NCBI GenBank assembly: GCA_019873625.1
Contig: JAIOAW010000007.1
Span: 13,596-77,595, forward strand
DNA length: 64,000 nt
Direction: 5' to 3'
From: Chloroflexota bacterium
GTDB taxonomy: Bacteria > Chloroflexota > Anaerolineae > UBA1429
Shown: in pieces, positions 2,656 to 64,000 of the stretch
Layout of the letters: each line of letters opens with the position of its first letter
How positions within the stretch are numbered: position 1 is the first letter of the stretch
Translations under genes and position numbers: made by a program
Notes under the pieces: model-generated
Databases searched by the model: none
Seen by the model: only the letters and a program-made list of their open reading frames with translations
What the model was told of the DNA's origin: nothing

Positions 2656-4758
2656 TCATTGGGCAGGTAGGGATTCTACCCGCAGCGGCACAGCCAACTC
2701 GATGGCCCCACCCTCTGCTTGCTCGGGCGCTTCTGCGCGGGCCGGCACACGTTCCCCTGTTTGCAATGTGTACATCCCTACAAGAAAGCGATACTCGCCT
2801 GGCACAAGATCTGCCGGCAATTGGAGAACGTGGCGATCTCCTACAAGTTCACCCGCTTTCCATAGGCTCGTCGGATAGTACCCGCCCAGGGGCTGTTGAT
2901 CGTGTTGACTCAACAGGCGGCTTTGTTGATCTACCAAATGAACAAACACGGTGTAATCCGCTTCGGTTGGGTTGAGCGCTCTCCAGTAAAGGGTCAGGTA
3001 CACCTTTTCACCGGCATGGGCGGGTTGTGGGTAGAGTTCATAGCCTTCCAAGCGGGCAAGGTCGCCGACCTCAGCCTGTGCCCCATTCGCAAGCGGCACG
3101 GAATCGGTGAGGCGTAGAATGCACCAATTCGCCGGGATGCCCTCGTATGGTAGAACGAGCGCCCATTTTTCAGGAAGCCGTTCGATAATGACCCAAGGGT
3201 ATTCAGGCGTGAAGTATCCGGCGAAGGCCTCCGCTCGGCGGCTAACGACTTCCCAATCCAAGATGGCATAGACCAAGCGTTTCTCTCGCGCGTAAGCAGT
3301 GATATCTTCTAGATTTTGCACCTTGGAGGGAATATCTTTGAGGCTAAGGCGCCGTTCGTAGAGCCAATTGGGCAGGGTATAACTTGGCCCCCAAAGCACC
3401 TTCGTGCCGTAAGGAGTGCCTTCCTCCAACCATTCTAGAACGGCCTGCCCACGCGTATTGGCTTCCCGATCGATGGTTACAGGATGAGCGCGGATTTGGG
3501 GCCAAGCGCGGCCAGCGGAGACGCCCGCCCAGAGGGCCAACCCTGCACCTAAAGCCAAAGGCACCTTCGCTGTAAGATTCCTGAGCCTTTCCCTGCCCGC
3601 TATCCATTGACCCCCAATTGCTCCTAATGCGTCAAGGGTAAAGAGATAGATCATCGGGTGGAACAGGATGATAAATCTTGGCCCTACGTTGCTCGCTTGG
3701 ACGAACCACCCCAGCGGGATGAGCGAGAAGATAAGCATCCCCAGAAAGAGCCAAAAAGCGAGCGCCAAATGCCCCCACTGAGCACAGATCAGCCGGCGTT
3801 TTTGCCAAAAGAGCACCAACAGCCCTAACCAGAGGGCAATCCAGACCTTTTCTCCAACCGTTCCTCGGAAAGCATCCGGTGAAATGGGGCCTAATGCGTC
3901 AAAAAGGATGCGCGTAACCTCTCGCAACCCGAACCACAAGCGGTAGGCAATATCCGCCGCGGTATGTGTGCGGAGATAGGTCTGGAGCGTCGGCGCCTCG
4001 CTTAGGTCTGCAAAATGCCGTTGAGTTGGGCTATCAAGAAAGATCTCGTGCCGATAGTTATAATTGTACAAGGGGTTACCGTATTCTTTGATATTGAACA
4101 CAAAGAGAGGTGCCCAGGCAATAAGCCAAGTCAGGCCAAAGAGCCAAACCTCGCGGCGTTGCCATACCTTCCGCCGGTAAACCTTGAGGGCAACCAAGCC
4201 AAAAGCCGGCACGATTTGGAGCGCCGTCCCTTTGGTAAAGTAGGCTAGCCCCGCCATAATCCCCGCCAAAGAGATAAGGAAGAGTGCCTTGCGCTCCGAG
4301 GAGGCCAAGCCCTCGGTCATCAGATACCAACTAGCCAAGGTGAGGAGAATAAGGAGTGGTTCCGCCATCACGCGTGATGATACCTCGAGGAACGATGCAT
4401 TGAGGCTCAATAGGCCGGCTGTCAATAATCCCACTTTGGGGCCAAACCACCGCTTTCCCAAGAGGTATACCATCACGAGGCATAGCCCGCCCAAGAAAAG
4501 GTTCAGAAACTTGGCGCGTGTGTAATAGCGCCACTCACGTTCAGCAAAAAGTGAAAGAAGGGCGGGCAAAAGGGGATGGCGTTTGCCATCGGTCAGGTCG
4601 TGGCCGTCGCGCAGGTTCAACCCCAGCGTGAGATAGGATCGTTGGTCGAACGCGCTGGAGTTCGTGTTCTGTTCAACCGCGACGATCCCCCGAACCGTAT
4701 AACTCGCCAGAAGTAAAGTGAGAAGAAACCAATAAGCCCACGGCGTCTTGGATTTCAT
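2656..4758 (-). CDS. GT-C fold membrane glycosyltransferase (GT39/ArnT/PMT-like, polyprenyl-phosphate-sugar dependent) with a large C-terminal non-membrane domain
   Basis: 700 aa. The N-terminal roughly 450 aa contain many predicted TM helices and a conserved-looking early loop (DEAFH-like region, RDGHDLTDGKRHPLLP). The C-terminal roughly 250 aa are soluble. The start codon overlaps the stop of the upstream FAD flavoprotein gene. Confidence 0.45.
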   Translation of the reverse strand: MKSKTPWAYWFLLTLLLASYTVRGIVAVEQNTNSSAFDQRSYLTLGLNLRDGHDLTDGKRHPLLPALLSLFAEREWRYYTRAKFLNLFLGGLCLVMVYLLGKRWFGPKVGLLTAGLLSLNASFLEVSSRVMAEPLLILLTLASWYLMTEGLASSERKALFLISLAGIMAGLAYFTKGTALQIVPAFGLVALKVYRRKVWQRREVWLFGLTWLIAWAPLFVFNIKEYGNPLYNYNYRHEIFLDSPTQRHFADLSEAPTLQTYLRTHTAADIAYRLWFGLREVTRILFDALGPISPDAFRGTVGEKVWIALWLGLLVLFWQKRRLICAQWGHLALAFWLFLGMLIFSLIPLGWFVQASNVGPRFIILFHPMIYLFTLDALGAIGGQWIAGRERLRNLTAKVPLALGAGLALWAGVSAGRAWPQIRAHPVTIDREANTRGQAVLEWLEEGTPYGTKVLWGPSYTLPNWLYERRLSLKDIPSKVQNLEDITAYAREKRLVYAILDWEVVSRRAEAFAGYFTPEYPWVIIERLPEKWALVLPYEGIPANWCILRLTDSVPLANGAQAEVGDLARLEGYELYPQPAHAGEKVYLTLYWRALNPTEADYTVFVHLVDQQSRLLSQHDQQPLGGYYPTSLWKAGELVGDRHVLQLPADLVPGEYRFLVGMYTLQTGERVPARAEAPEQAEGGAIELAVPLRVESLPAQ

Positions 4759-7034: not shown

Positions 7035-7634
7035 TTAGGCCTCTTCAGCCACTTTGGCTCCGCAGTGATCGCAGAAGCGCGCCCCCGGCCGCAAGGCTTG
7101 GCCGCACTGCGGGCAGGTGATCTCCAGCCGGGCACCACAGTGATCACAAAACTTGGCGCCCTCTCGCACGGTATGGCCGCAAGAAGGGCAGGTCATTACC
7201 CCTTCTTGAGCGGGCGCCGCCTCAAACGGCAACGCTGCGCTGACCTTCCCGCCGCTCAGGATGTACTGGTTCACGAAATTGAACACCTGATCCGGCAGTT
7301 TTTTCTGCTGCCAGGCCCCGTAGGCCGCCGGGATGAGCGCCGGCCAAAAGAGAAGCACCCCCACCGCGCCAACCACCGCCTTATCTGCCCACGGAGCGGC
7401 ACCCGTTTGCACGGTGAGAAGATCATCCGTCTTTGTGAGGCTCACGTTGAGCGCAGCAGACATCCCCACGAACTGTCGCCAGCCCTCCGTTTTGCGCGCC
7501 TGGACGAGCACGCCGCCGCCCGGCGCGGACATCGCCTGGGCTTCAAACCCGCCGCGCTGAAACCATTCCACCAAGGCTTGGCCGAGTTGCCCGAGATCTA
7601 CCCCCGGCGCTTGATACACTCGCTGATCTGCCAT
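7035..7634 (-). CDS. hypothetical protein with C-terminal double zinc-ribbon (DZR) domain
   Basis: 199 aa. The C-terminus carries CPSCGHTV...CDHCGARL...CPQCGQAL...CDHCGAKV, i.e. four CxxC pairs. There is a central hydrophobic segment. Confidence 0.5.
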   Translation of the reverse strand: MADQRVYQAPGVDLGQLGQALVEWFQRGGFEAQAMSAPGGGVLVQARKTEGWRQFVGMSAALNVSLTKTDDLLTVQTGAAPWADKAVVGAVGVLLFWPALIPAAYGAWQQKKLPDQVFNFVNQYILSGGKVSAALPFEAAPAQEGVMTCPSCGHTVREGAKFCDHCGARLEITCPQCGQALRPGARFCDHCGAKVAEEA

Positions 7635-7801
7635 CTTGCCCTCCTTTCGGGCCTACACGCCTCGGTCGCACCGCGAAAGTAACCCACGACGCACACGCAT
7701 TCTATCTCACAAGGGGCAAACGTCCAACCCGCCGGAAGACCAGAGTTGTCAAAACCTGCGATCCTGCATATCCTCACGGCAACGACGTGCGAAAAGGTGT
7801 T

Positions 7802-8575
7802 ATGATGGAATTTACCCCTTATGAATATCGCGGCTTGGTGGCCCAAGCCTGGGATATCTTGCGCGGTGATACCTCTCACTGGGCGGACCGTTTTTTCTAC
7901 CTCGAAATCATCTGCCAATACGGCGAACCCGTTTTGGATATTGGTTGCGGCACGGGGCGGTTGCTTTTGGATTATCTTTCCCAGGGAGTCGCCATTGAGG
8001 GGGTGGATAATTCTCCAGAAATGCTCGCCCTTTGCCGCCAAAAGGCGGAGCATCTAGGCCTCGAGGTAACGCTCTATGAACAATATCTAGAGCGCCTGTC
8101 TCTGCCGCGGCGCTATCGGACGATCCTTATCCCCTCGAGTACTCTACAACTGCTGACCGATCCGCAAATGGCCCTGGAGGCACTACGGCGAGTGTATGCG
8201 CATCTCGCGCCGGGGGGCGCTGTGGCTGCCTCGATGATGACGCTGTGGCAGACTGGTGAGCCACTTTACTCTGAAGCCGAGCAAACGGCCGTCCGCCCAG
8301 AGGATGGCGCCCTCGTTCGGCGCGTCGCCAAAACCTGGTACGATCCCTCTAGCGAATGCGAAAGCACTGAAGACTTGTATCAAATCATCAGCGCCGACGG
8401 GCAAATTCTCGCCGAAGAATGTCACCGGCGTTCGCCTGCTACGCGTTCTTATACGCAAGACCAAGCGCGAGCGCTTTTCGCCCAAGCCGGGTTCAACCGC
8501 ATTAGCCTATACAGCCAATTCACCTTTTCGCCTGCTCAACCAGCAGACCGCCTTTTTACTGTGGTCGCCCAATAA
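7802..8575 (+). CDS. class I SAM-dependent methyltransferase
   Basis: Carries the motif VLDIGCGTGR (motif I) followed by an acidic motif II. ATG ATG at 7802/7805 is preceded by AAAAGG. Confidence 0.7.
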   Translation: MMEFTPYEYRGLVAQAWDILRGDTSHWADRFFYLEIICQYGEPVLDIGCGTGRLLLDYLSQGVAIEGVDNSPEMLALCRQKAEHLGLEVTLYEQYLERLSLPRRYRTILIPSSTLQLLTDPQMALEALRRVYAHLAPGGAVAASMMTLWQTGEPLYSEAEQTAVRPEDGALVRRVAKTWYDPSSECESTEDLYQIISADGQILAEECHRRSPATRSYTQDQARALFAQAGFNRISLYSQFTFSPAQPADRLFTVVAQ

Positions 8576-18010: not shown

Positions 18011-18038
18011 ATTATAAAATAGGGAGGGGGCCTGTCAA
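18011..18038 (-). promoter_or_regulatory. consensus sigma-70 promoter for tRNA-Arg (TTGACA-16-TATAAT)
   Basis: Minus strand reads TTGACA (plus 18033-18038), a 16-nt spacer, then TATAAT (plus 18011-16). The tRNA 5' end lies about 10 nt downstream. Confidence 0.45.
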
Positions 18039-44228: not shown

Positions 44229-45002
44229 CTAATCTGGGATGATCAACTGCTGGCCGGCGTAGATGAGGTTGCGGTTCGTCAAGCCATTGGCTTGCATCAA
44301 ATCCTCAACCGTGAGGCCATAGAGCGCGGCGATGGACGAAAGGTTTTCGCCGTAGCGCACCGTATGCGTGCGCGCGCGACCGCCTGGCCCCACGGGCACA
44401 AGGAGGGCCGTGCCGCGCACGAGATGATTCGGGTCGCGTATGGAAGGGTTCCATGCGAGGATCTCCTCGACCGTCGTATGGTAGAGGCGCGCAATTTGAT
44501 ATAACGTCTCACCCGGGCCTACGATGTGAGAGACGGTTTTGATGTTCGACGTGCCGGGCCTAGCGGCCGGTGTGGCGGGGGCGGGTGTAGGCGTCGGCAC
44601 CAGGAGGGGCGCCGCCGTGGCCGTGGGTTGCATCGTCGGAGAGGGCGCTGCGGCGGCGAGAACGGCTGGCGTAGGCGGGATGGGCGCAGGCGTAAACGCC
44701 TTTTGAGGTGCGGAGGTTGGGGTGGGCGATGAAACGGCTTGGGCCTTGGGGGACACCGAGGAGGGGCTTGGCGAGGGGGAGGGCATACTCACCGTAGGGA
44801 CGCCCGCAAAGGGAGGGCGTTCCCGCCGGGGCTTGGAGCGCGTGCACGCGGCTAAGCCGATGAGCGCCAAGGTGCACAAGGCGATGCGTAGGGCCCTTTG
44901 ACTCGCGCTGGCCATGCCACCCTTTCTCAGCCATGAATTCGCCGCACTGCGTACATCGCACACGATTGTATACATCATAACACACAAACAAGAAAAGGTC
45001 AA
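44229..45002 (-). CDS. LysM-domain peptidoglycan-binding (lipo)protein
   Basis: Two C-terminal LysM repeats (GETLYQIARLYHTTVEEILAWN...; GENLSSIAALYGLTVEDLMQAN...). A PAT-rich linker precedes them. The likely real start is the ATG near 44915 (MASASQRALRIALCTLALIGLAAC, a lipobox). The track start is TTG. Confidence 0.65.
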   Translation of the reverse strand: MTFSCLCVMMYTIVCDVRSAANSWLRKGGMASASQRALRIALCTLALIGLAACTRSKPRRERPPFAGVPTVSMPSPSPSPSSVSPKAQAVSSPTPTSAPQKAFTPAPIPPTPAVLAAAAPSPTMQPTATAAPLLVPTPTPAPATPAARPGTSNIKTVSHIVGPGETLYQIARLYHTTVEEILAWNPSIRDPNHLVRGTALLVPVGPGGRARTHTVRYGENLSSIAALYGLTVEDLMQANGLTNRNLIYAGQQLIIPD

Positions 45003-45175
45003 AGTCTTTTGAAGGAATACGCGCTTGAACGATTTTAGAACGCCACAAGGAGCGTTTCCTCATCCCCTTTGCCGAGGGTGTTCGGTGGGGAGGTCGGCGA
45101 TCCTGATTTCACTCTCGCCCGCCCCCATTTCCCCGAGCGATTCAATCCCCCAATGCGCAGGCGCCGAATGATGCT

Positions 45176-58652: not shown

Positions 58653-59453
58653 CTAGGGCATCGGCGGAACGTCCTCCAGAAGCCATTCCAGCAGGCGATC
58701 TACCCACGAGCGCAGATCGGGCCATTCCTCGGCCAACCCCACGCCGTGCGGCCCGCTGGGGTAGATGTGTAGCGAGACGGGCACGCCCTGGGCGCGGCAG
58801 GCCTGGGCAAACCGGAGGCTATGGGAGGCGGGCACCACGTCATCATCTGCTGTGTGAAAGATAAAGGTGGGCGGGTTAGCCGGGGAGACGTGCAGTTCGT
58901 TGCTCAGTTGGCGACGCAGGGCTTCCGGTGGCCGGGGACCAAGGAGCGCCACGGCCGAGCCGAGGTGATACTCGCGCACCATCGAGATGACGGGGTAGGC
59001 CAAGGCCAGGCGATCGGGCCGGGCGCTGTAAAGGGCCGCAAGGTCATCCAGCGGGTCGCGGTGCACATCGGGCTGGGTGGCGATGGTGCTCGCCAAATGC
59101 CCGCCGGCGCTGAAGCCCATCAGGGTGAGCGCCCCTTGGCGCAGCCCCCAACGCGCGGCTTGAGCGCGCACCAGACGCACGGCACGGGCGGCGTCGGCCA
59201 TCGGCGCGGGGTAGCGATGGGGCGCTACGCGATAAACACACACCGCCGCGAGGAGGCCGTGCCGCGCAAAGAGCCGCGCAAAGGGTTCGCCCTCGTGGGG
59301 GGCGAGCATCTCATAGCCGCCGCCGGGCAAGATGATGATAGCCTGCCCCCGAAACGCCCCCGTGGGATGATATATCTCCAATCGGGGCCGCTGCGCGGTC
59401 TTGTTGTGGGGAGACCCATCGGGCCAGAGGAAGAGCGTCTCGTCAGCGGTCAT
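58653..59453 (-). CDS. alpha/beta hydrolase (esterase/lipase family)
   Basis: GFSAGGHLA is the GxSxG nucleophile elbow. The HGGG-like oxyanion region is IIILPGGGY. The true ATG at 59453 overlaps the SDR stop. The track ORF has a 155-aa spurious extension. Confidence 0.65.
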   Translation of the reverse strand: MTADETLFLWPDGSPHNKTAQRPRLEIYHPTGAFRGQAIIILPGGGYEMLAPHEGEPFARLFARHGLLAAVCVYRVAPHRYPAPMADAARAVRLVRAQAARWGLRQGALTLMGFSAGGHLASTIATQPDVHRDPLDDLAALYSARPDRLALAYPVISMVREYHLGSAVALLGPRPPEALRRQLSNELHVSPANPPTFIFHTADDDVVPASHSLRFAQACRAQGVPVSLHIYPSGPHGVGLAEEWPDLRSWVDRLLEWLLEDVPPMP

Positions 59454-60241
59454 AGCAGGCCCTGGATCGCGCCGCCATCCACCTGGATGGTGGCCCCGGT
59501 GATGTAAGAGGCCTTCTCGGAGGCCAAAAAGGCGATGAGCGCGGCGAGTTCCTCTGGGCGGCCCAGGCGCCCCATCGGGATGGCGGCCTGCGATTCCGCC
59601 AAGACCTCCTCCACCGTTCGCCCCTCGCGGGCAGCGCGATCGGCAGCCAGGGCGCGCACGCGGTCGGTAAGCATATAGCCGGGGCAGACGTTGTTGACGG
59701 TGATGCCCTCGGCGGCCACTTGGCCGGCCAAGGTCTTGGCCATAGCCACGACGCCGGCGCGCACGGCGTTGGAGAGGATGAGGTTCGGAATGGGCTGTTT
59801 GACGGCGAGGGAGACGATGTTGATGATGCGCCCCCAACGGCGGGAACGCATTTCGGGGAGGACGAGCCGCGTAAGCCGCACGGCGCTCATCAGGTTCAAC
59901 TGAAAAGCGGCGAGCCAATCCTCATCGGTTACATCGGTAAAGGTGCCCGGGGGCGGCCCGCCCGCGTTGTTCACCAGGATTTCCACCGGGCCGAGTTCGG
60001 CGCGCACGCGCGCCACAAGCGCTTCGCAATCGGCGGCACGGCTCACATCCGCGCGGACCGGGAGGATCGTGCTCCCGGTGGTTCGGCGGATTTCTTCCGC
60101 GGCGAGCGCTAGGTCGGCTTCGTTGCGCGCGGCAATGGCGACGGCGCACCCCTCTTCGGCGAGGGCGAGGGCTGTCGCTTTGCCCAGGCCTTTACTCGCG
60201 GCAGCCACTAAGGCGACCTTGCCTTGAATCCCTAATTCCAT
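59450..60241 (-). CDS. SDR-family oxidoreductase (FabG-like)
   Basis: GKVALVAAASKGLGKATA is the TGxxxGxG-like motif, NNAG is present, and the catalytic residues sit in a YxxxK-like context (SNAVRAGVVAMAK). Confidence 0.8.
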   Translation of the reverse strand: MELGIQGKVALVAAASKGLGKATALALAEEGCAVAIAARNEADLALAAEEIRRTTGSTILPVRADVSRAADCEALVARVRAELGPVEILVNNAGGPPPGTFTDVTDEDWLAAFQLNLMSAVRLTRLVLPEMRSRRWGRIINIVSLAVKQPIPNLILSNAVRAGVVAMAKTLAGQVAAEGITVNNVCPGYMLTDRVRALAADRAAREGRTVEEVLAESQAAIPMGRLGRPEELAALIAFLASEKASYITGATIQVDGGAIQGLL

Positions 60242-60250
60242 GGCGCTCCT

Positions 60251-61309
60251 TCAGGCTCTTTGTAAGGGGATGGTCGTGCCGCAATACTCGCAGCGGATGG
60301 ACGATAGCCCCCGCACCGGGCCAGCGCGGTCGAGCGCCGCCCCGCAAGAAGGGCACTTGGGCGGGATGATGAACACGGGCACCTCGGGCGCGCCGCCCGC
60401 CCGATCCTGCGCGACCTCGCCCGTTTGGCAGCGCAGGATGAGGGCGCGCCAGGTTTCGGAATCGGCGTCGAGTTCCAGTTCGGCGCGGCCAAAGGGCCCA
60501 CCTGGGGCGGGCGAGATGGCCAAAAGTTCGCGCTTCAGGACGAGCGCCCTGCGCGCCTCGGCCGCGTTGACCTCGCCAACCTGGGCAAGGGGTGCCTCCC
60601 AAACCACCTCTTGGATGGTCTCCGAGGCCGTGGTGATAAAGAGCACCTTTTTGCGGGCCACCTTTTCGCGCCGCTCGAAGATGAGACGCTGATCGGTGAG
60701 GAAGAGGATGCCCTCTTGGCGCTCATCTCCCCGTAGGAATCGCGCTTGGACGGCCTCCACGAGGCCCTCGCCCGGCTGGAGCACAAAACGCGCCTCGGCC
60801 AGCCAACCCATCATACGCGAGATATCGGCCACTTCACGAGAGAGGGCCTCCAGGTTCGTCAGGAACCCTCGGAACAGGTTCTGCACGGCATCGGCCGAGG
60901 CGTTCACAAGGTGCTCGCAGGCAGCGATTTCACTTTCCACGCGGCGCAAGGTAGGCTCGGCGGCGCTCAAAGGGCTGGAACGCAGGGCGGAAAGGCGACG
61001 CACGGATTCTTCGACGCTCAGGATAGCGGGCCGCAGCCTGGCGCTGTGGCTTTCGATGGCGTTCAGCACGCCAGGGCGCAGGCGCGGCCATTCCTCGGCG
61101 AGGGCGCTCAAGCGCGCCTCCCAGCCGGCGCGATAGAGGAACCCCCGGCTGCGGAGAGCGGCGATTTCCTGCGGCAGGCGGAGGAGATCGGCATCCGCCT
61201 GGGCCAGCCGGTTGCGCACATCGTTCAGGAGCGCGGCCCGTTCCAACGCGGCGAGCCGCTCCTCCAAACGGCGGACGGCCGCCTCAGCCGTGGGGGGTGG
61301 TTGCGTCAT
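60251..61309 (-). CDS. hypothetical protein: N-terminal coiled coil, central bacterial PH/GRAM-like domain, C-terminal zinc ribbon
   Basis: GILFLTDQRLIFERREK...VLFI is a bPH-like core. The C-terminus carries CPSCGAAL...CEYCGTTI. The start overlaps the PAP2 stop. Confidence 0.45.
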   Translation of the reverse strand: MTQPPPTAEAAVRRLEERLAALERAALLNDVRNRLAQADADLLRLPQEIAALRSRGFLYRAGWEARLSALAEEWPRLRPGVLNAIESHSARLRPAILSVEESVRRLSALRSSPLSAAEPTLRRVESEIAACEHLVNASADAVQNLFRGFLTNLEALSREVADISRMMGWLAEARFVLQPGEGLVEAVQARFLRGDERQEGILFLTDQRLIFERREKVARKKVLFITTASETIQEVVWEAPLAQVGEVNAAEARRALVLKRELLAISPAPGGPFGRAELELDADSETWRALILRCQTGEVAQDRAGGAPEVPVFIIPPKCPSCGAALDRAGPVRGLSSIRCEYCGTTIPLQRA

Positions 61310-62259
61310 CTTGGCTCCTTGAGAGGGGAGTTGGCATTTACCTCGTTTTTATTATTGCCGCCGTGAAGAGGCCTGTCAAGCACGGCAAGGCCCAAACGGG
61401 CCATCGCCCACGGCACGCCGAACATAACCCAAGCCCCTAGCGCGGCATAGCGCAAGAAGCGCAGCGCGGCAAACGAGGCGGCCTCTCCGAAGAGGGCTTT
61501 GAGGCTCAGATAAAGGAGGGCCACGCCGCCCATGCCGATGCCCAGCGCAGCGACCATCGCCCAGCCCCAGCGGGCGCGGCGGAAGCGCACCCAGCGCCGT
61601 TCCAAGGGGAGCGTGCCCGCTATGCCGGCCAGGGCCGCAGCGGCGATGAGGGCGTCGCCGGTGGGTTCGGCGTATAGGGCGAGGATAACGGCGGGCAGGG
61701 CCAAGCCAGCGCCGACCTGTAGGCCGAAGGGGAGGCCTCCCCAGGCGGCGGCTAAGCGATCTTGGTAGCGCCAAAAGAGGGCCAGACCAAGCGCCCCTAA
61801 TAGCCAACCGCCTAGGATATCTGTGGGAAAGTGCACCCCCAAATAGACGCGCGAGAGCGACACGAGCACGATGAGGAGCGCGGCCAGGGCCGTGAAGAGG
61901 CGCCTCTTCCAGCGCAGGGCCAGATACCCCCACAAGACGACGGCATTCTGCGCATGCCCGCTGGGCAGGCCGCCCCCTGTGGCCGAGGTGAGCATCAAGA
62001 CGCGCGGATCGTAGGCAAAGGGGCGCGGCTGGGCCAAGATGGCCTTGGCCACGGCGTTTAGGTAGGCGGAAGCCAAGAAGAGGAGGGTGAGGCGCACGGC
62101 CGTAGAGCGATCCACAAGCCAGTAGAGGAGCGGCAAGAGGAGGATGTAAAACGCCGCCTCGCCCGTCCAGGTGAGCACGCGAAAGGGTGCATCGAGCGCG
62201 GGGCTGAAGCGCTGGCACCAGAGGATGACTTCAACGCCCCAATTCAAGATAGGAGTCAT
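61306..62259 (-). CDS. PAP2-family phosphatase (type 2 phosphatidic acid phosphatase / undecaprenyl-PP phosphatase-like)
   Basis: The three PAP2 motifs are KxxxxxxRP (KAILAQPRP), PSGH and SRxxxxxHxxxD (SRVYLGVHFPTD). There are multiple TM helices. Confidence 0.75.
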   Translation of the reverse strand: MTPILNWGVEVILWCQRFSPALDAPFRVLTWTGEAAFYILLLPLLYWLVDRSTAVRLTLLFLASAYLNAVAKAILAQPRPFAYDPRVLMLTSATGGGLPSGHAQNAVVLWGYLALRWKRRLFTALAALLIVLVSLSRVYLGVHFPTDILGGWLLGALGLALFWRYQDRLAAAWGGLPFGLQVGAGLALPAVILALYAEPTGDALIAAAALAGIAGTLPLERRWVRFRRARWGWAMVAALGIGMGGVALLYLSLKALFGEAASFAALRFLRYAALGAWVMFGVPWAMARLGLAVLDRPLHGGNNKNEVNANSPLKEPR

Positions 62260-62462
62260 ATCGCCCGCCTTATCCCTTGGTGCTGGGCCTCCGCTTCACA
62301 AGGGGTCTCGCCTTAGCCCGTTTGTGGGAAACTTAACGCCTCGACGTGGGTGGTGCGCGCATTATCGCTGCGCGCCCGAAGAAGTCAAGCGAAATGCGGC
62401 GCAAAATTATGTTTGATAATGCATAAATTTTTTTGTAAAAAGGCTTTTTAGACAAAAAATAG

Positions 62463-62491
62463 TTGACATCTGGTCAAATTTGTGCTATACT
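62463..62491 (+). promoter_or_regulatory. near-consensus sigma-70 promoter (TTGACA-17-TATACT) with an AT-rich UP-like element
   Basis: TTGACA at 62463-68, a 17-nt spacer, then TATACT at 62486-91. The 80 bp upstream (62400-62462) are more than 75% AT in a roughly 67% GC genome. RBS AAGGAGG and an ATG lie 21 nt downstream of the -10 element. Confidence 0.55.
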
Positions 62492-62511
62492 CTTTGGTGA
62501 AAGGAGGGGCG

Positions 62512-62916
62512 ATGCGCACGATATTGACTCGGTGCCCTAACTGCGGCGGGGAGATGGAGGTTACCAGGCTCCATTGTACGCGCTGTGAGACGGTCATCTT
62601 GGCGCGGTACGATCCCTGCCCTTTCTGCCGCCTCAAACCCGAGAGCCAAGCCTTCATCACGGCCTTTGTGCGGTACCGTGGCAACCTCAAAGAGATGGAG
62701 CGCGAATTGGGCCAATCCTACTGGTCGCTGCGCAACCGCCTGCAAGAGATCATCCAGGAGCTGGGCTTTGAGGCGGTTCCCTCCCGCGAGGAACAGGGGG
62801 CCGAACGCGAAGCGGCCGTGGCGCGGCGCGAGATCCTCGAGCGCCTGGAGCGGGGCGAAATCAGCGTGGCCGAGGCAGTGGCGGCGCTTTCCAAGCGCGG
62901 CGAGGCCGCCCCATAA
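62512..62916 (+). CDS. DUF2089-like protein (N-terminal zinc ribbon, HTH-like middle, C-terminal SHOCT-like helix)
   Basis: MRTILTRCPNCGGEMEVTRLHCTRCETVI...CPFC is a Zn-ribbon pair. FVRYRGNLKEMERELGQSYWSLRNRL is HTH-like. The C-terminal EILERLERGEISVAEAVAAL is the SHOCT-like motif. Confidence 0.55.
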   Translation: MRTILTRCPNCGGEMEVTRLHCTRCETVILARYDPCPFCRLKPESQAFITAFVRYRGNLKEMERELGQSYWSLRNRLQEIIQELGFEAVPSREEQGAEREAAVARREILERLERGEISVAEAVAALSKRGEAAP

Positions 62917-62939
62917 AAATGTTCGAAAGAAGGAGCAAG

Positions 62940-63839
62940 ATGGACGAAGAACGGGAGCGTATCCTTCAGATGCTTGCGGAACGCAAGATCAGCGTGGATG
63001 AGGCCGTACAACTCTTAGAGGCCTTGGGCCAGGGAGGGCGGGCCGAGGGTATGGTGAACCCCTGGGAACGGGACGAGGCGGGGCGCGCCACGCGGCCCTT
63101 GATGGAAGACCCTTTTGCGCCCCCCGAGCCGGCCACACCCCCGCCCTTTGAGGCCGGGCCAGAAGATGCCCAGGCGAAACGGTGGGAGCGGGCTAAGCCC
63201 GATTGGCATGGGCGCGACCTGCGCGAGATGGACCTGCGCGGTTGGAACTTGATGGGGGCCGACCTCCATGGCGCGAACCTAGAGGGGGCCAACCTAAAAG
63301 GGGTAACGCTTATGGGCGCCAATCTGCACGAGGCGAATCTGCGCGGAGCGAACCTCAAGGGCGCCAACCTCACGGGCGCCAACTTGGAAGGCGCCAACCT
63401 CGAAGAGGCCGATCTCCACGGGGCGAACCTGCGAGGGGCCAACCTCCGGGGGCAGAACCTCGCCGAGTTGGACCTGCACGGCGCTAACCTGATGGGAACC
63501 AACCTCGAGGGGGCGCAGTTGGAGGATTGTGAACTCCACGGCGCGAACTTGCAAGGCGCCGTGCTCAAAGGGGCCAATCTGCGCGGTGCGGACCTCCACG
63601 GGGCGAACCTAACGGGGAGCAATCTCACGGAGGCGGACCTGGAGGGAGCCGACTTCCACGGGGCGAACCTTACTGGGGCCAACCTGGCGGGCGCTAAGCT
63701 GCGCGGCACGGATCTTCATGGGGCGAACTTGGCGGGCGTCAACCTACGGGGGATGGACCTTTCCGGCGCAGACCTCCACGAGACGGACTTGCGAGGTCGC
63801 AGCGCGCCCCAAGAGGAAGATGCCCCGCCAGAGGAATAG
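62940..63839 (+). CDS. pentapeptide-repeat protein with N-terminal SHOCT-like helix
   Basis: The N-terminus (RERILQMLAERKISVDEAVQLLEAL) has the same motif as the upstream protein's C-terminus. Roughly 28 tandem A(N/D)LxG pentapeptide repeats follow. The ATG at 62940 is preceded by AAGGAG. An alternative ATG at 62919 lies 2 nt after the upstream stop. Confidence 0.75.
   Translation: MDEERERILQMLAERKISVDEAVQLLEALGQGGRAEGMVNPWERDEAGRATRPLMEDPFAPPEPATPPPFEAGPEDAQAKRWERAKPDWHGRDLREMDLRGWNLMGADLHGANLEGANLKGVTLMGANLHEANLRGANLKGANLTGANLEGANLEEADLHGANLRGANLRGQNLAELDLHGANLMGTNLEGAQLEDCELHGANLQGAVLKGANLRGADLHGANLTGSNLTEADLEGADFHGANLTGANLAGAKLRGTDLHGANLAGVNLRGMDLSGADLHETDLRGRSAPQEEDAPPEE
63230..63800 (+). 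repeat. tandem 15-nt/30-nt DNA repeats encoding the pentapeptide-repeat array
   Basis: Recurring GGCGCGAACCT / GGGGCCAACCT units (e.g. 63271-63420). It is a coding repeat, not a CRISPR. Confidence 0.7.
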
Positions 63840-63845
63840 ACCTTA

Positions 63846-63876
63846 CCCTCCCGCAGGTTTCTAAACTGCGGGAGGG
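63846..63876. terminator. hairpin downstream of the pentapeptide gene (probable terminator between convergent genes)
   Basis: Perfect 11-bp stem CCCTCCCGCAG/CTGCGGGAGGG with a 9-nt loop. Confidence 0.4.
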
Positions 63877-63896
63877 TTCACTGCACCTGACGATCC

Positions 63897-64000
63897 TCAG
63901 CCCGCCCGCACCGTAATATCGGAGACAAAGTGCACGGCCTCCACCCGCACGCGCCGTTTGGCCTCTTCATATTCCGGTGTGGCGTAGGTGATGGGGGAGA
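63897..64000 (-). CDS. 3' end of a minus-strand gene continuing beyond the window; product unknown
   Basis: The open minus-strand frame ends ...ITYATPEYEEAKRRVRVEAVHFVSDITVRAG* with TGA at 63897-63899. Confidence 0.3.
   Translation of the reverse strand, partial: SPITYATPEYEEAKRRVRVEAVHFVSDITVRAG

Follow-up and report, generated by a model that had tools for sequence, protein, structure and literature searches.

Near the downstream end of a 64,000-nucleotide stretch of the Chloroflexota bacterium contig JAIOAW010000007.1 (assembly GCA_019873625.1; the whole stretch is called the window below), two adjacent genes encode a DUF2089 DNA-binding protein (gene 1) and an acidic pentapeptide-repeat protein (gene 2). 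Both proteins carry a SHOCT-like helical hairpin, and the pair is preceded by an AT-rich island that is a conserved control region. In related genomes the conserved unit is this same cassette, a regulator with one or more hairpin-tagged partners, since the genes flanking it are heterogeneous on both sides. A functional partnership of the DNA-binding protein with its tagged partner is well founded because their adjacency is conserved and the shared helix is, by alignment, homologous. We consider it probable that the cassette is an autoregulated regulator-plus-partner module. The longer chain, in which an autorepressed regulator would have its activity set by a partner docked through the SHOCT-like hairpins, we regard as evenly poised.

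Related loci were gathered in a scan of one genome per species, which gave 80 loci from Chloroflexota, Latescibacterota, Gemmatimonadota and Poribacteria, with two labelled Sulfomarinibacteraceae and Holophagaceae. Partner counts per locus cover the 79 loci with enough downstream DNA, mostly Chloroflexota, and promoter and motif counts cover the upstream regions of 84 related loci. Conserved adjacency in other genomes had been named beforehand as a test that could refute the original prediction, and it was found. At least one SHOCT-tagged gene lies downstream of the regulator in 70 of 79 loci, within about 250 nucleotides in 62 of these; a pentapeptide partner is present in 27 loci, and 16 loci have two to four partners. 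The SHOCT-candidate genes immediately downstream of DUF2089 genes number 92, and 90 of them match PF22746 (SHOCT-like_DUF2089-C) at the N-terminus. Behind this tag, 37 have a pentapeptide domain, a few have a Toastrack/DUF4097 domain (as in the orthologous operon L031), and the remainder have no known domain. The closest relatives, Chloroflexi metagenome bins at 84–92% identity, retain the pair and much of the synteny around it (SDR, 352-residue protein, PAP2, regulator, partner, convergent LiaF-like gene and 109-residue gene). Relatives at 61–64% identity have other neighbourhoods and still show the regulator followed by SHOCT-like plus pentapeptide proteins. Close and distant relatives alike keep the pair (L001, L004, L007 and L090), and L007 has two SHOCT-like plus pentapeptide paralogues. 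Complete Chloroflexota genomes with the cassette include OY776562.1, OZ244843.1 and OZ241994.1. When the neighbours of the cassette (141 downstream, 73 upstream) were scanned with Pfam, no family proved enriched.

Three or four SHOCT-tagged genes stand in tandem at L028 (5443–9820), L013 (5483–7497), L022 (5460–7260) and L007 (6430–9296). These arrays, each behind one DUF2089 gene, mix pentapeptide and unknown domains, and at L007 an open reading frame of 84 residues lies between the regulator and the first partner.

The partners have in common that they are acidic and soluble. Their median charge is −0.073 per residue, compared with −0.007 for neighbouring genes (Mann-Whitney p = 6e-18), and the value is the same by class (−0.071 for pentapeptide partners, −0.075 for the others). 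A hydrophobic or transmembrane segment was found in none of the 92. Many of the non-pentapeptide partners (L085, L088, L089, L083, L077, L071 and L024) are 420–550 residues long with net charges of −40 to −53. Numerous sub-threshold, multi-segment Pfam matches in these same proteins (DUF4473, DUF5615, DUF2639) suggest an uncatalogued acidic repeat domain.

Gene 1 had been read as a DUF2089 protein with a zinc ribbon and a helix-turn-helix (HTH)-like unit, and Pfam agrees. The protein matches Zn_ribbon_DUF2089 (PF22747; 46.9 bits, cut-off 27.6) and DUF2089-HTH (PF09862; 66.7 bits, cut-off 33.4), both above threshold. It is laid out as a zinc ribbon at residues 8–39, a LuxR/GerE-like HTH at 41–87, a linker and a SHOCT-like helical hairpin at about 92–130. 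The C-terminal part scores 17.2 bits against PF22746, under the threshold of 27; its place in the three-part architecture is backed by the profile alignment given below and by the predicted hairpin. In the AlphaFold2 model (84 homologues; predicted local distance difference test score, pLDDT, 82) the HTH unit consists of three helices (43–83), preceded by a small beta-ribbon and followed by the hairpin helices at 92–113 and 119–130. Three CxxC pairs (C8/C11, C22/C25 and C36/C39; nucleotides 62533–62628) occupy the ribbon. The first four cysteines are invariant in the 84 homologues, and conservation reaches at least 90% at C36 and C39. Four cysteines suffice for a zinc ribbon; the third pair might act as a redox switch or bind metal at a second or an intermolecular site. 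Within the HTH core (RGN-KEME...SYW-LR), residues G57, N58, M62, R64, S69, Y70 and R74 are invariant in the same set. No identical copy of gene 1 is recorded in public assemblies; its nearest relatives, 92% and 91% identical, come from Chloroflexi metagenome bins. Foldseek matches to the HTH include RcsB, GerE, DesR, LiaR, DosR, ECF sigma region 4 and PucR, aligned over about 48 residues at about 2 Å. This class agrees with passages of Ravi et al. (mSystems 2024; PMC11237479) that group DUF2089-HTH with GerE-HTH. A search of PDB sequences with the DUF2089 profile returned only chance zinc-ribbon matches and no sequence-related solved structure.

The hairpins of the two window proteins are identical at 12 of 29 residues (BLASTP E 5e-4). 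When a profile of 30 regulator C-termini was aligned with one of 28 partner N-termini in hhalign, the probability was 97% with an E-value of 5.7e-11. The consensus is IL..L.RGEI.A.EAA.LL in regulators and ER..IL.ML.EGKIT..EA..LL.AL in partners. These alignments show true homology between the gene 1 and gene 2 hairpins; the shared SHOCT-like helix that had been proposed from a single pair of sequences thus stands, with low-complexity coincidence ruled out. Both versions are acidic, with a median net charge of −2 in regulators and −3 in partners, and 1% are positive. The helix is already catalogued as PF22746, and in passages of Ravi et al. (2024; PMC11237479) DUF2089 is divided into zinc ribbon, HTH and SHOCT-like parts and the dyad is listed. 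The original observation of a shared helix and dyad is accordingly a rediscovery of a known, purely computational one.

Gene 2 begins 23 nucleotides after gene 1. A gap of 2 nucleotides had also been entertained, but the start that it needs, ATG 62919, is unsupported, as orthologues begin M-D/S/N-E-E at the SHOCT-like domain. The protein consists of a SHOCT-like hairpin at residues 2–30, a disordered, acidic, proline-rich linker at 34–87, repeats at 88–287 and a disordered acidic tail. Residues 3–32 match PF22746 at 37.7 bits, over the threshold of 27. The pentapeptide assignment made originally holds, with 250 bits to PF00805, although the count of about 28 repeats was too low: 40 consecutive, uninterrupted pentapeptides make up 10 coils. 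AlphaFold2 predicts helices at 2–13 and 19–30 (pLDDT 82–85) and a beta-helix at 88–283 (pLDDT >90), with no helix after residue 283, where the tail is disordered, and so no C-terminal dimerisation helix. The protein carries a net charge of −24, with −13 in the repeats, and composition analysis reveals no transmembrane segment in either gene 1 or gene 2. In Foldseek searches of the PDB the best matches are consensus-designed solenoids and HetL, at 35–45% identity and with E-values down to 1e-16. Qnr, MfpA and AlbG are among the fold matches, with only about 20% identity to the Qnr and MfpA structures. Protein searches with full-length gene 2 are dominated by generic pentapeptide proteins, which makes them uninformative on orthology, and residues 1–95 used as a query for SHOCT-tagged proteins found nothing. 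PADLOC defence-system models gave only a 13-bit LmuB match for gene 1 and none for gene 2, and a scan of a phage library gave nothing relevant.

A histidine ladder runs along the solenoid. Nine of the ten gene 2 histidines lie in DLHGA pentapeptides (nucleotides 63201–63800) exactly 20 residues apart, with a periodicity of one per coil and in the outward-facing i+1 position. L001 retains the ladder, which is also present in the distant pentapeptide partners L044, L060 and L076 and absent from many others. It may form a metal- or pH-sensitive surface or may be a mere trace of recent coil duplication.

Upstream of gene 1, positions 62400–62479 have a G+C content of 25%, in line with the AT-rich stretch of about 80 bp (more than 75% A+T) first described. 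The surroundings had been put at roughly 67% GC, whereas the mean of the window is 63.8%. The lowest 80-nucleotide G+C of the entire window falls in this island; the next-lowest islands reach only 0.35–0.36 (4019–4133 and 44950–45051), and neither contains the palindromes described below. The promoter TTGACA-17-TATACT had been called perfect and the best in the window. Its hexamers and spacing are as described, with an extended −10 TG at 62483–62484, but it matches the consensus at 11 of 12 positions. A 12/12 match, TTGACA-16-TATAAT, occurs at 18038 on the minus strand with a 16-nucleotide spacer and no TG, and three further 11/12 matches are found in the window. Among these strong matches only the gene 1 promoter combines a 17-nucleotide spacer, the TG and an AT-rich upstream region. 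On this evidence it appears to be a near-consensus sigma-70-type promoter with an extended −10 that drives a bicistronic operon, and the predicted leader of gene 1 is only about 14 nucleotides long. A minus-strand 10/12 promoter (62388 to 62361) abuts the AT island, which might therefore influence the divergent operon too.

To regard the island as a strong promoter was right but incomplete, since conserved and phased operator-like palindromes had been missed. Nearly all related loci show a shift from AT-poor to AT-rich sequence upstream of the regulator gene, and the minimum 60-nucleotide G+C of their islands is mostly 0.10–0.30. A promoter matching at least 10 of 12 positions is found in 65 of the 84 loci and a 17-nucleotide spacer in 71, and the −10 hexamer lies 20–25 nucleotides from the start codon in most. 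The palindrome CAA-W5-TTG, most commonly CAAAATATTTG, occurs at 70 sites in 53 of the 84 upstream regions, compared with 1.6 +/- 1.3 in dinucleotide shuffles. Its density is 5.6 per kb upstream and 0.009 per kb in the rest of the loci (808 kb), roughly a 600-fold difference, and several of these ‘outside’ matches sit just past the 150-nucleotide upstream limit; in other AT-rich stretches the density is 0.24 per kb. The sites fall at discrete positions relative to the −35 hexamer, namely −40/−41, −28, −20/−21, −8/−11 and +10/+11. Those at −8/−11 have their TTG in common with the −35 hexamer, while those at +10/+11 lie within the spacer and contribute the G of the extended −10. Neighbouring sites are 19–21 bp apart in 16 of 18 cases, with a modal spacing of 20 bp. 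Promoter spacer positions are normally unconstrained; across 55 of these loci each position from +12 to +21 holds about 1 bit of information, and the spacer of the window promoter follows the family pattern at +13 to +18 and +20 to +22.

The window promoter has its own variants of these sites (Table 1). The motif CAWAAAWWTTTTTG, allowed up to 2 mismatches, is found in the 64 kb only within the island, save for one weak match at 62912. The two distal 14-mers lie 20 bp apart, and the second of them, CATAAATTTTTTTG, aligns with CAAAAATTTTTTTG in L001, CAAAAAATTTTTTG in L090 (a perfect palindrome) and CATAAAATATTTTG in L093. At the position of the window spacer site L090 carries an exact CAAAATTTTTG, and 14-mer or shortened versions of the motif are conserved among four relatives of the window’s clade. 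A regulon search revealed no copies of the motif outside this promoter in the window or in L001 and L090.

Some variation in the motif may follow the regulator. It is present in 52 of 73 loci whose regulator has SYW at the start of the recognition helix and in 0 of 5 with SYP (p = 0.013, confounded by phylogeny), a hint of an association between recognition helix and motif. Upstream of position 5001 in L043, L048, L081 and L031 (Gemmatimonadota, Latescibacterota), the islands have a minimum G+C of 0.10–0.15 and contain repeats such as TTTTGAAAA / TTCAAAAATTT instead of CAA-W5-TTG, and their regulators have SYP or SYS rather than SYW. Such repeats with an altered recognition helix may reflect co-divergence of operator and regulator. 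Two intergenic copies were also seen. A 2-mismatch 14-mer copy, CATAAAAATGTTCG, spans the gene 1 stop codon and the intergenic gap at 62912–62925, and L033 has an exact CAA-W5-TTG between its regulator and partner genes; these could be chance occurrences or internal control sites.

HTH proteins of the LuxR/GerE type generally bind palindromes as dimers. Phased palindromes over the −35 hexamer and the spacer, next to a gene for a protein with such an HTH, would correspond to a classical autorepressor layout. Because gene 1 is the sole transcription factor that always accompanies the element, we infer that its product is the binder. Its targets would be the AT-rich CAA(A)-Wn-(T)TTG palindromes, which are spaced at about two helical turns and lie ahead of the −35, across it and within the spacer; by competing with RNA polymerase at these sites the protein would repress its own operon. 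The hairpins of gene 1 and gene 2 would then associate, either directly or via a common third component. A flexible linker of about 55 residues would tether the 10-coil beta-helix to its hairpin, and the acidic solenoid so placed beside the HTH would alter DNA binding by the regulator, most simply as an anti-repressor or decoy. It would also provide an exchangeable input or scaffold surface that confers dependence on some signal. That it is exchangeable is suggested because in related genomes the same regulator precedes one to four tagged partners, whose domains are of the pentapeptide or Toastrack type or are acidic and unknown. A mechanism of this kind would account for a domain that varies between operons, for the presence of several partners per regulator and for partners that are all acidic and soluble.

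Several results weigh against autorepression by a docked regulator. The Foldseek E-values for the HTH are weak (0.4 or higher), though every match belongs to one HTH class. Regulator and partner hairpins from the same genome are no closer to each other than non-cognate pairs (36.7% versus 37.6% identity), and no co-variation signal was detected, as 4,814 of 5,000 permutations reached the observed cognate similarity; this co-variation result is uninformative either way on hairpin contact. The single published oligomerisation test used a classical SHOCT domain and gave a negative result (PMC3581485). At the level of DNA, the window has no exact CAA-W5-TTG, its own sites being 14-mers or shortened copies. 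The spacing of the half-sites varies (70 sites with W5, 20 with W6), which is unusual for a rigid dimer, and part of the spacer motif (TTTG) overlaps the expected extended −10 or ‘−16’ promoter element. Furthermore, the motif is largely restricted to Chloroflexota, at 51 of 71 loci compared with 3 of 13 in other phyla.

Other explanations fit parts of these data. The hairpins could anchor each protein at the inner membrane face and not to each other, with the regulator kept there beside the solenoid scaffold until membrane or cell-wall stress releases it, in concert with the neighbouring LiaF-TM/Toastrack protein, giving Lia-like signalling without a two-component system. We think this unlikely, though it is the alternative to be taken most seriously. 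Passages of Ravi et al. (PMC11237479) predict that SHOCT-like domains localise to the membrane and that DUF2089/Toastrack operons act in a Lia-like manner, and describe pentapeptide domains that substitute for Toastrack in HAAS-PadR systems. In the window’s clade a gene with LiaF-TM and LiaF-like_C domains is convergent to gene 2, a PAP2 phosphatase of the undecaprenyl-diphosphatase type is divergent to gene 1, and some orthologous partners combine SHOCT-like and Toastrack, as in L031. However, no transmembrane segment is found in either protein or in any of the 92 partners, and hairpins as acidic as these poorly suit anionic bacterial membranes. LiaF-TM is rare downstream of the cassette (2 of 141 neighbours), PspC, sigma factors and anti-sigma factors are not enriched around it, and the AT island beside the LiaF-like operon of L090 has no good copy of the motif. 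The partner could instead act as a co-repressor or scaffold that bridges operator-bound regulator dimers, with the solenoid as a rigid spacer that increases cooperativity and repression, and with loss or modification of the partner as the inducing event. Several operator-like sites about 20 bp apart, co-transcription of both genes at a fixed ratio and the proposal in passages of Ravi et al. (PMC11237479) that beta-solenoid surfaces are assembly platforms are all compatible with such an arrangement. A strongly acidic rod beside DNA would be electrostatically unfavourable, however, and there is no sign of partner self-association and no predicted C-terminal helix, so that we rate this explanation as somewhat less probable still.

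The two remaining possibilities fare much worse. A topoisomerase-protection module, as originally suggested, would have the pentapeptide helix mimic DNA and shield gyrase in the manner of Qnr and MfpA, with gene 1 merely its regulator. The acidic beta-helix fold and the Qnr, MfpA and AlbG structures among the fold matches recall these proteins. The curated NCBIfam cut-offs are nevertheless missed by a wide margin, with 85.6 bits against 240 for Qnr and 81 against 360 for MfpA, and all Qnr sub-family models fall far below theirs. Identity to these structures is about 20%, in contrast to 35–45% for HetL and the consensus designs. Qnr structures have loops interrupting the helix and a C-terminal dimerisation helix. 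The 40 repeats of gene 2 are uninterrupted and hence lack the loops, and no such dimerisation helix is predicted. An MfpB-type GTPase is the operon partner of MfpA, and no gene for one is adjacent here. In orthologous operons, non-pentapeptide domains (Toastrack or unrelated acidic domains) stand at the same position. The suggestion has accordingly been abandoned as very improbable. Finally, the two genes might be unrelated neighbours with a helix shared through composition, given that the hairpin is short (about 30 residues) and rich in E, A and L and that gene 1 scores below threshold against PF22746. The hhalign E-value of 5.7e-11, the domain in 90 of 92 downstream genes, a partner in 70 of 79 loci and adjacency across several phyla exclude chance adjacency, and we give this explanation practically no credence.

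The nearest described system is the dyad DUF2089 -> SHOCT-like+X of Ravi et al. (2024; PMC11237479), which has the same regulator architecture and a same-strand next gene that starts with a SHOCT-like domain. Both that dyad and the window locus are known computationally only. X is left unnamed in the passages that describe the dyad, whereas in the window it is a 10-coil pentapeptide beta-helix. Other passages place DUF2089 in a four-gene context together with genes for sigma and anti-sigma factors and for a membrane-anchored Toastrack protein (PMC11237479). Beside the window locus we found neither a sigma factor nor a zf-HC2 anti-sigma factor, only the convergent LiaF-TM/LiaF-like_C gene. The Pfam families PF22747, PF09862 and PF22746 have no function attached; the last is named for the DUF2089 C-terminus, whereas in gene 2 and in 90 of 92 partners it forms the N-terminus of a different protein. 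The Lia system (LiaFSR, LiaG/YvlB) is similar in linking a beta-solenoid accessory protein to transcriptional output, and passages of Ravi et al. (PMC11237479) give YvlB-type proteins N-terminal SHOCT-like domains. A LiaF-like neighbour is present in the window’s clade, a link that is not conserved beyond it. The window regulator differs, however, in being a one-component zinc ribbon–HTH protein with a soluble pentapeptide partner, and neither a LiaS histidine kinase nor a LiaR response regulator was found in the window flank or in L001 and L090. A HAAS-PadR system with a HAAS+Pentapeptide protein (AOH56696.1), as it appears in part of the same source, likewise pairs a small transcription factor with a helical module fused to a pentapeptide domain, but its elements are a PadR winged helix and HAAS in place of the LuxR-like HTH with zinc ribbon and the SHOCT-like hairpin.

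Among pentapeptide proteins, HetL, Np275/276, Alr5209, Qnr and MfpA share the right-handed quadrilateral beta-helix with gene 2, but have no N-terminal SHOCT-like hairpin or DUF2089 neighbour. Against the curated NCBIfam model of HetL gene 2 scores 134 bits, below the cut-off of 260, and its 35% identity to the HetL structure is repeat-driven. Five partial repeat matches to the Alr5209 family (NF052603, 113 positions) sum to 223 bits, above the cut-off of 125. We treat this score too as repeat-driven; the architecture of gene 2 (SHOCT-like, linker, 10 coils) differs. The DUF2089 proteins of leaderless-bacteriocin loci (enterocin DD14 ORF C, 89 residues) are annotated to the same Pfam family as gene 1. 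Proteins of this type are about 89 residues long, basic and too short for the three parts; the genes listed around them are for membrane immunity and transport, and none is for a SHOCT-tagged partner.

On the downstream side, a 12-bp G+C-rich hairpin without a U-tract lies between the convergent genes and is the probable end of the operon. The convergent reading frame continues past the end of the window, and its translation matches the C-terminus of a 176-residue LiaF-like protein of L001 (region 7487–8422), a membrane protein with LiaF-TM and LiaF-like_C domains. In relatives this gene follows a conserved protein of 109–110 residues without a family match, and phmmer searches with the LiaF-like and 109-residue neighbours found them in the window’s own clade only. 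On the other side, the PAP2, 352-residue and SDR genes form a trio that is syntenic in the relatives at 91–92% identity. The best curated matches of the PAP2 phosphatase are undecaprenyl-diphosphatases, below cut-off. No confident family was found for the 352-residue protein, which has a sub-threshold GRAM/PH-like similarity and a C-terminal zinc ribbon. Other neighbours in the locus include an AP endonuclease and PMT_2.

Table 1. Positions of the cassette, its control region and its neighbours in the window.
Feature	Position	Strand	Basis or remark
Divergent three-gene operon	59450-60241, 60251-61309, 61306-62259	-	SDR, 352-residue protein, PAP2 phosphatase
AT-rich control region	62360..62525		Minimum 80-nucleotide G+C 0.24; contains promoter and palindromic sites
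Palindrome-like 14-mer CAAAATTATGTTTG, putative distal operator	62402..62415		20 bp from next site
Palindrome-like 14-mer CATAAATTTTTTTG, putative operator	62422..62435		Conserved in window’s own clade
CAAAAAATAGTTG, site sharing TTG with −35 hexamer	62453..62465		Clade-conserved; family −8/−11 class
−35 hexamer TTGACA	62463..62468	+	Invariant among aligned promoters of related loci
Spacer site CAAATTTGTG	62475..62484		Shortened copy of family spacer palindrome; last TG is the extended −10
−10 hexamer TATACT	62486..62491	+	
Shine-Dalgarno GGAGG of gene 1	62503..62507	+	ATG of gene 1 at 62512
Gene 1, 134 residues	62512..62916	+	Pfam, alignments, AlphaFold2, Foldseek, hhalign
Shine-Dalgarno AAGGAG of gene 2	62930..62935	+	
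Gene 2, 299 residues	62940..63839	+	Pfam, composition, AlphaFold2, Foldseek
G+C-rich hairpin, 12 bp, without U-tract	63845..63877		−26 kcal/mol, z-score −4.2, 0/200 shuffles as stable
LiaF-TM / LiaF-like_C (Toastrack-type) gene, 3' end, continues past window end	63897..64000	-	Convergent neighbour

Neither the three Pfam families nor the dyad DUF2089 -> SHOCT-like+X is new. New here are the findings that X is a pentapeptide helix in about a third of loci, that the promoter is conserved together with its phased palindromes, that the partners are uniformly acidic and that several of them can form an array. The promoter and palindrome architecture, the partner acidity and the multi-partner arrays are not described in the searched parts of Ravi et al. 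(2024; PMC11237479) and its supplement, and a literature search found no paper that links a pentapeptide helix with the DUF2089/SHOCT-like dyad. In public data the DUF2089 family comprises 2,096 clusters at 50% identity (E <= 1e-3). We know of no DUF2089 regulator that has been characterised, nor of an experiment that establishes the role of SHOCT or SHOCT-like domains.

A more far-reaching idea, which we hold to be a long shot, is that the SHOCT-like hairpin is a docking code. One LuxR-class autorepressor would be titrated by interchangeable acidic solenoid or repeat decoys, the pentapeptide helix would mimic the regulator’s operator and not a topoisomerase substrate, and up to four partners would feed inputs to one promoter. 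If true, a one-component-plus-adaptor form of signalling would have gone unrecognised until now; the gain would be incremental if the module is one more envelope-stress accessory. The locus is a compact test case, with a defined promoter and candidate operators, one regulator and one soluble partner that carries the same tag. Its near-consensus hexamers, TG extension and leader of about 14 nucleotides make the promoter a candidate strong, regulatable part for Chloroflexota, where genetic tools are few. Work on the locus could decide between protein-protein docking and membrane anchoring as the role of SHOCT-like hairpins, and for pentapeptide-repeat proteins it could add a second assigned role to that in topoisomerase protection.

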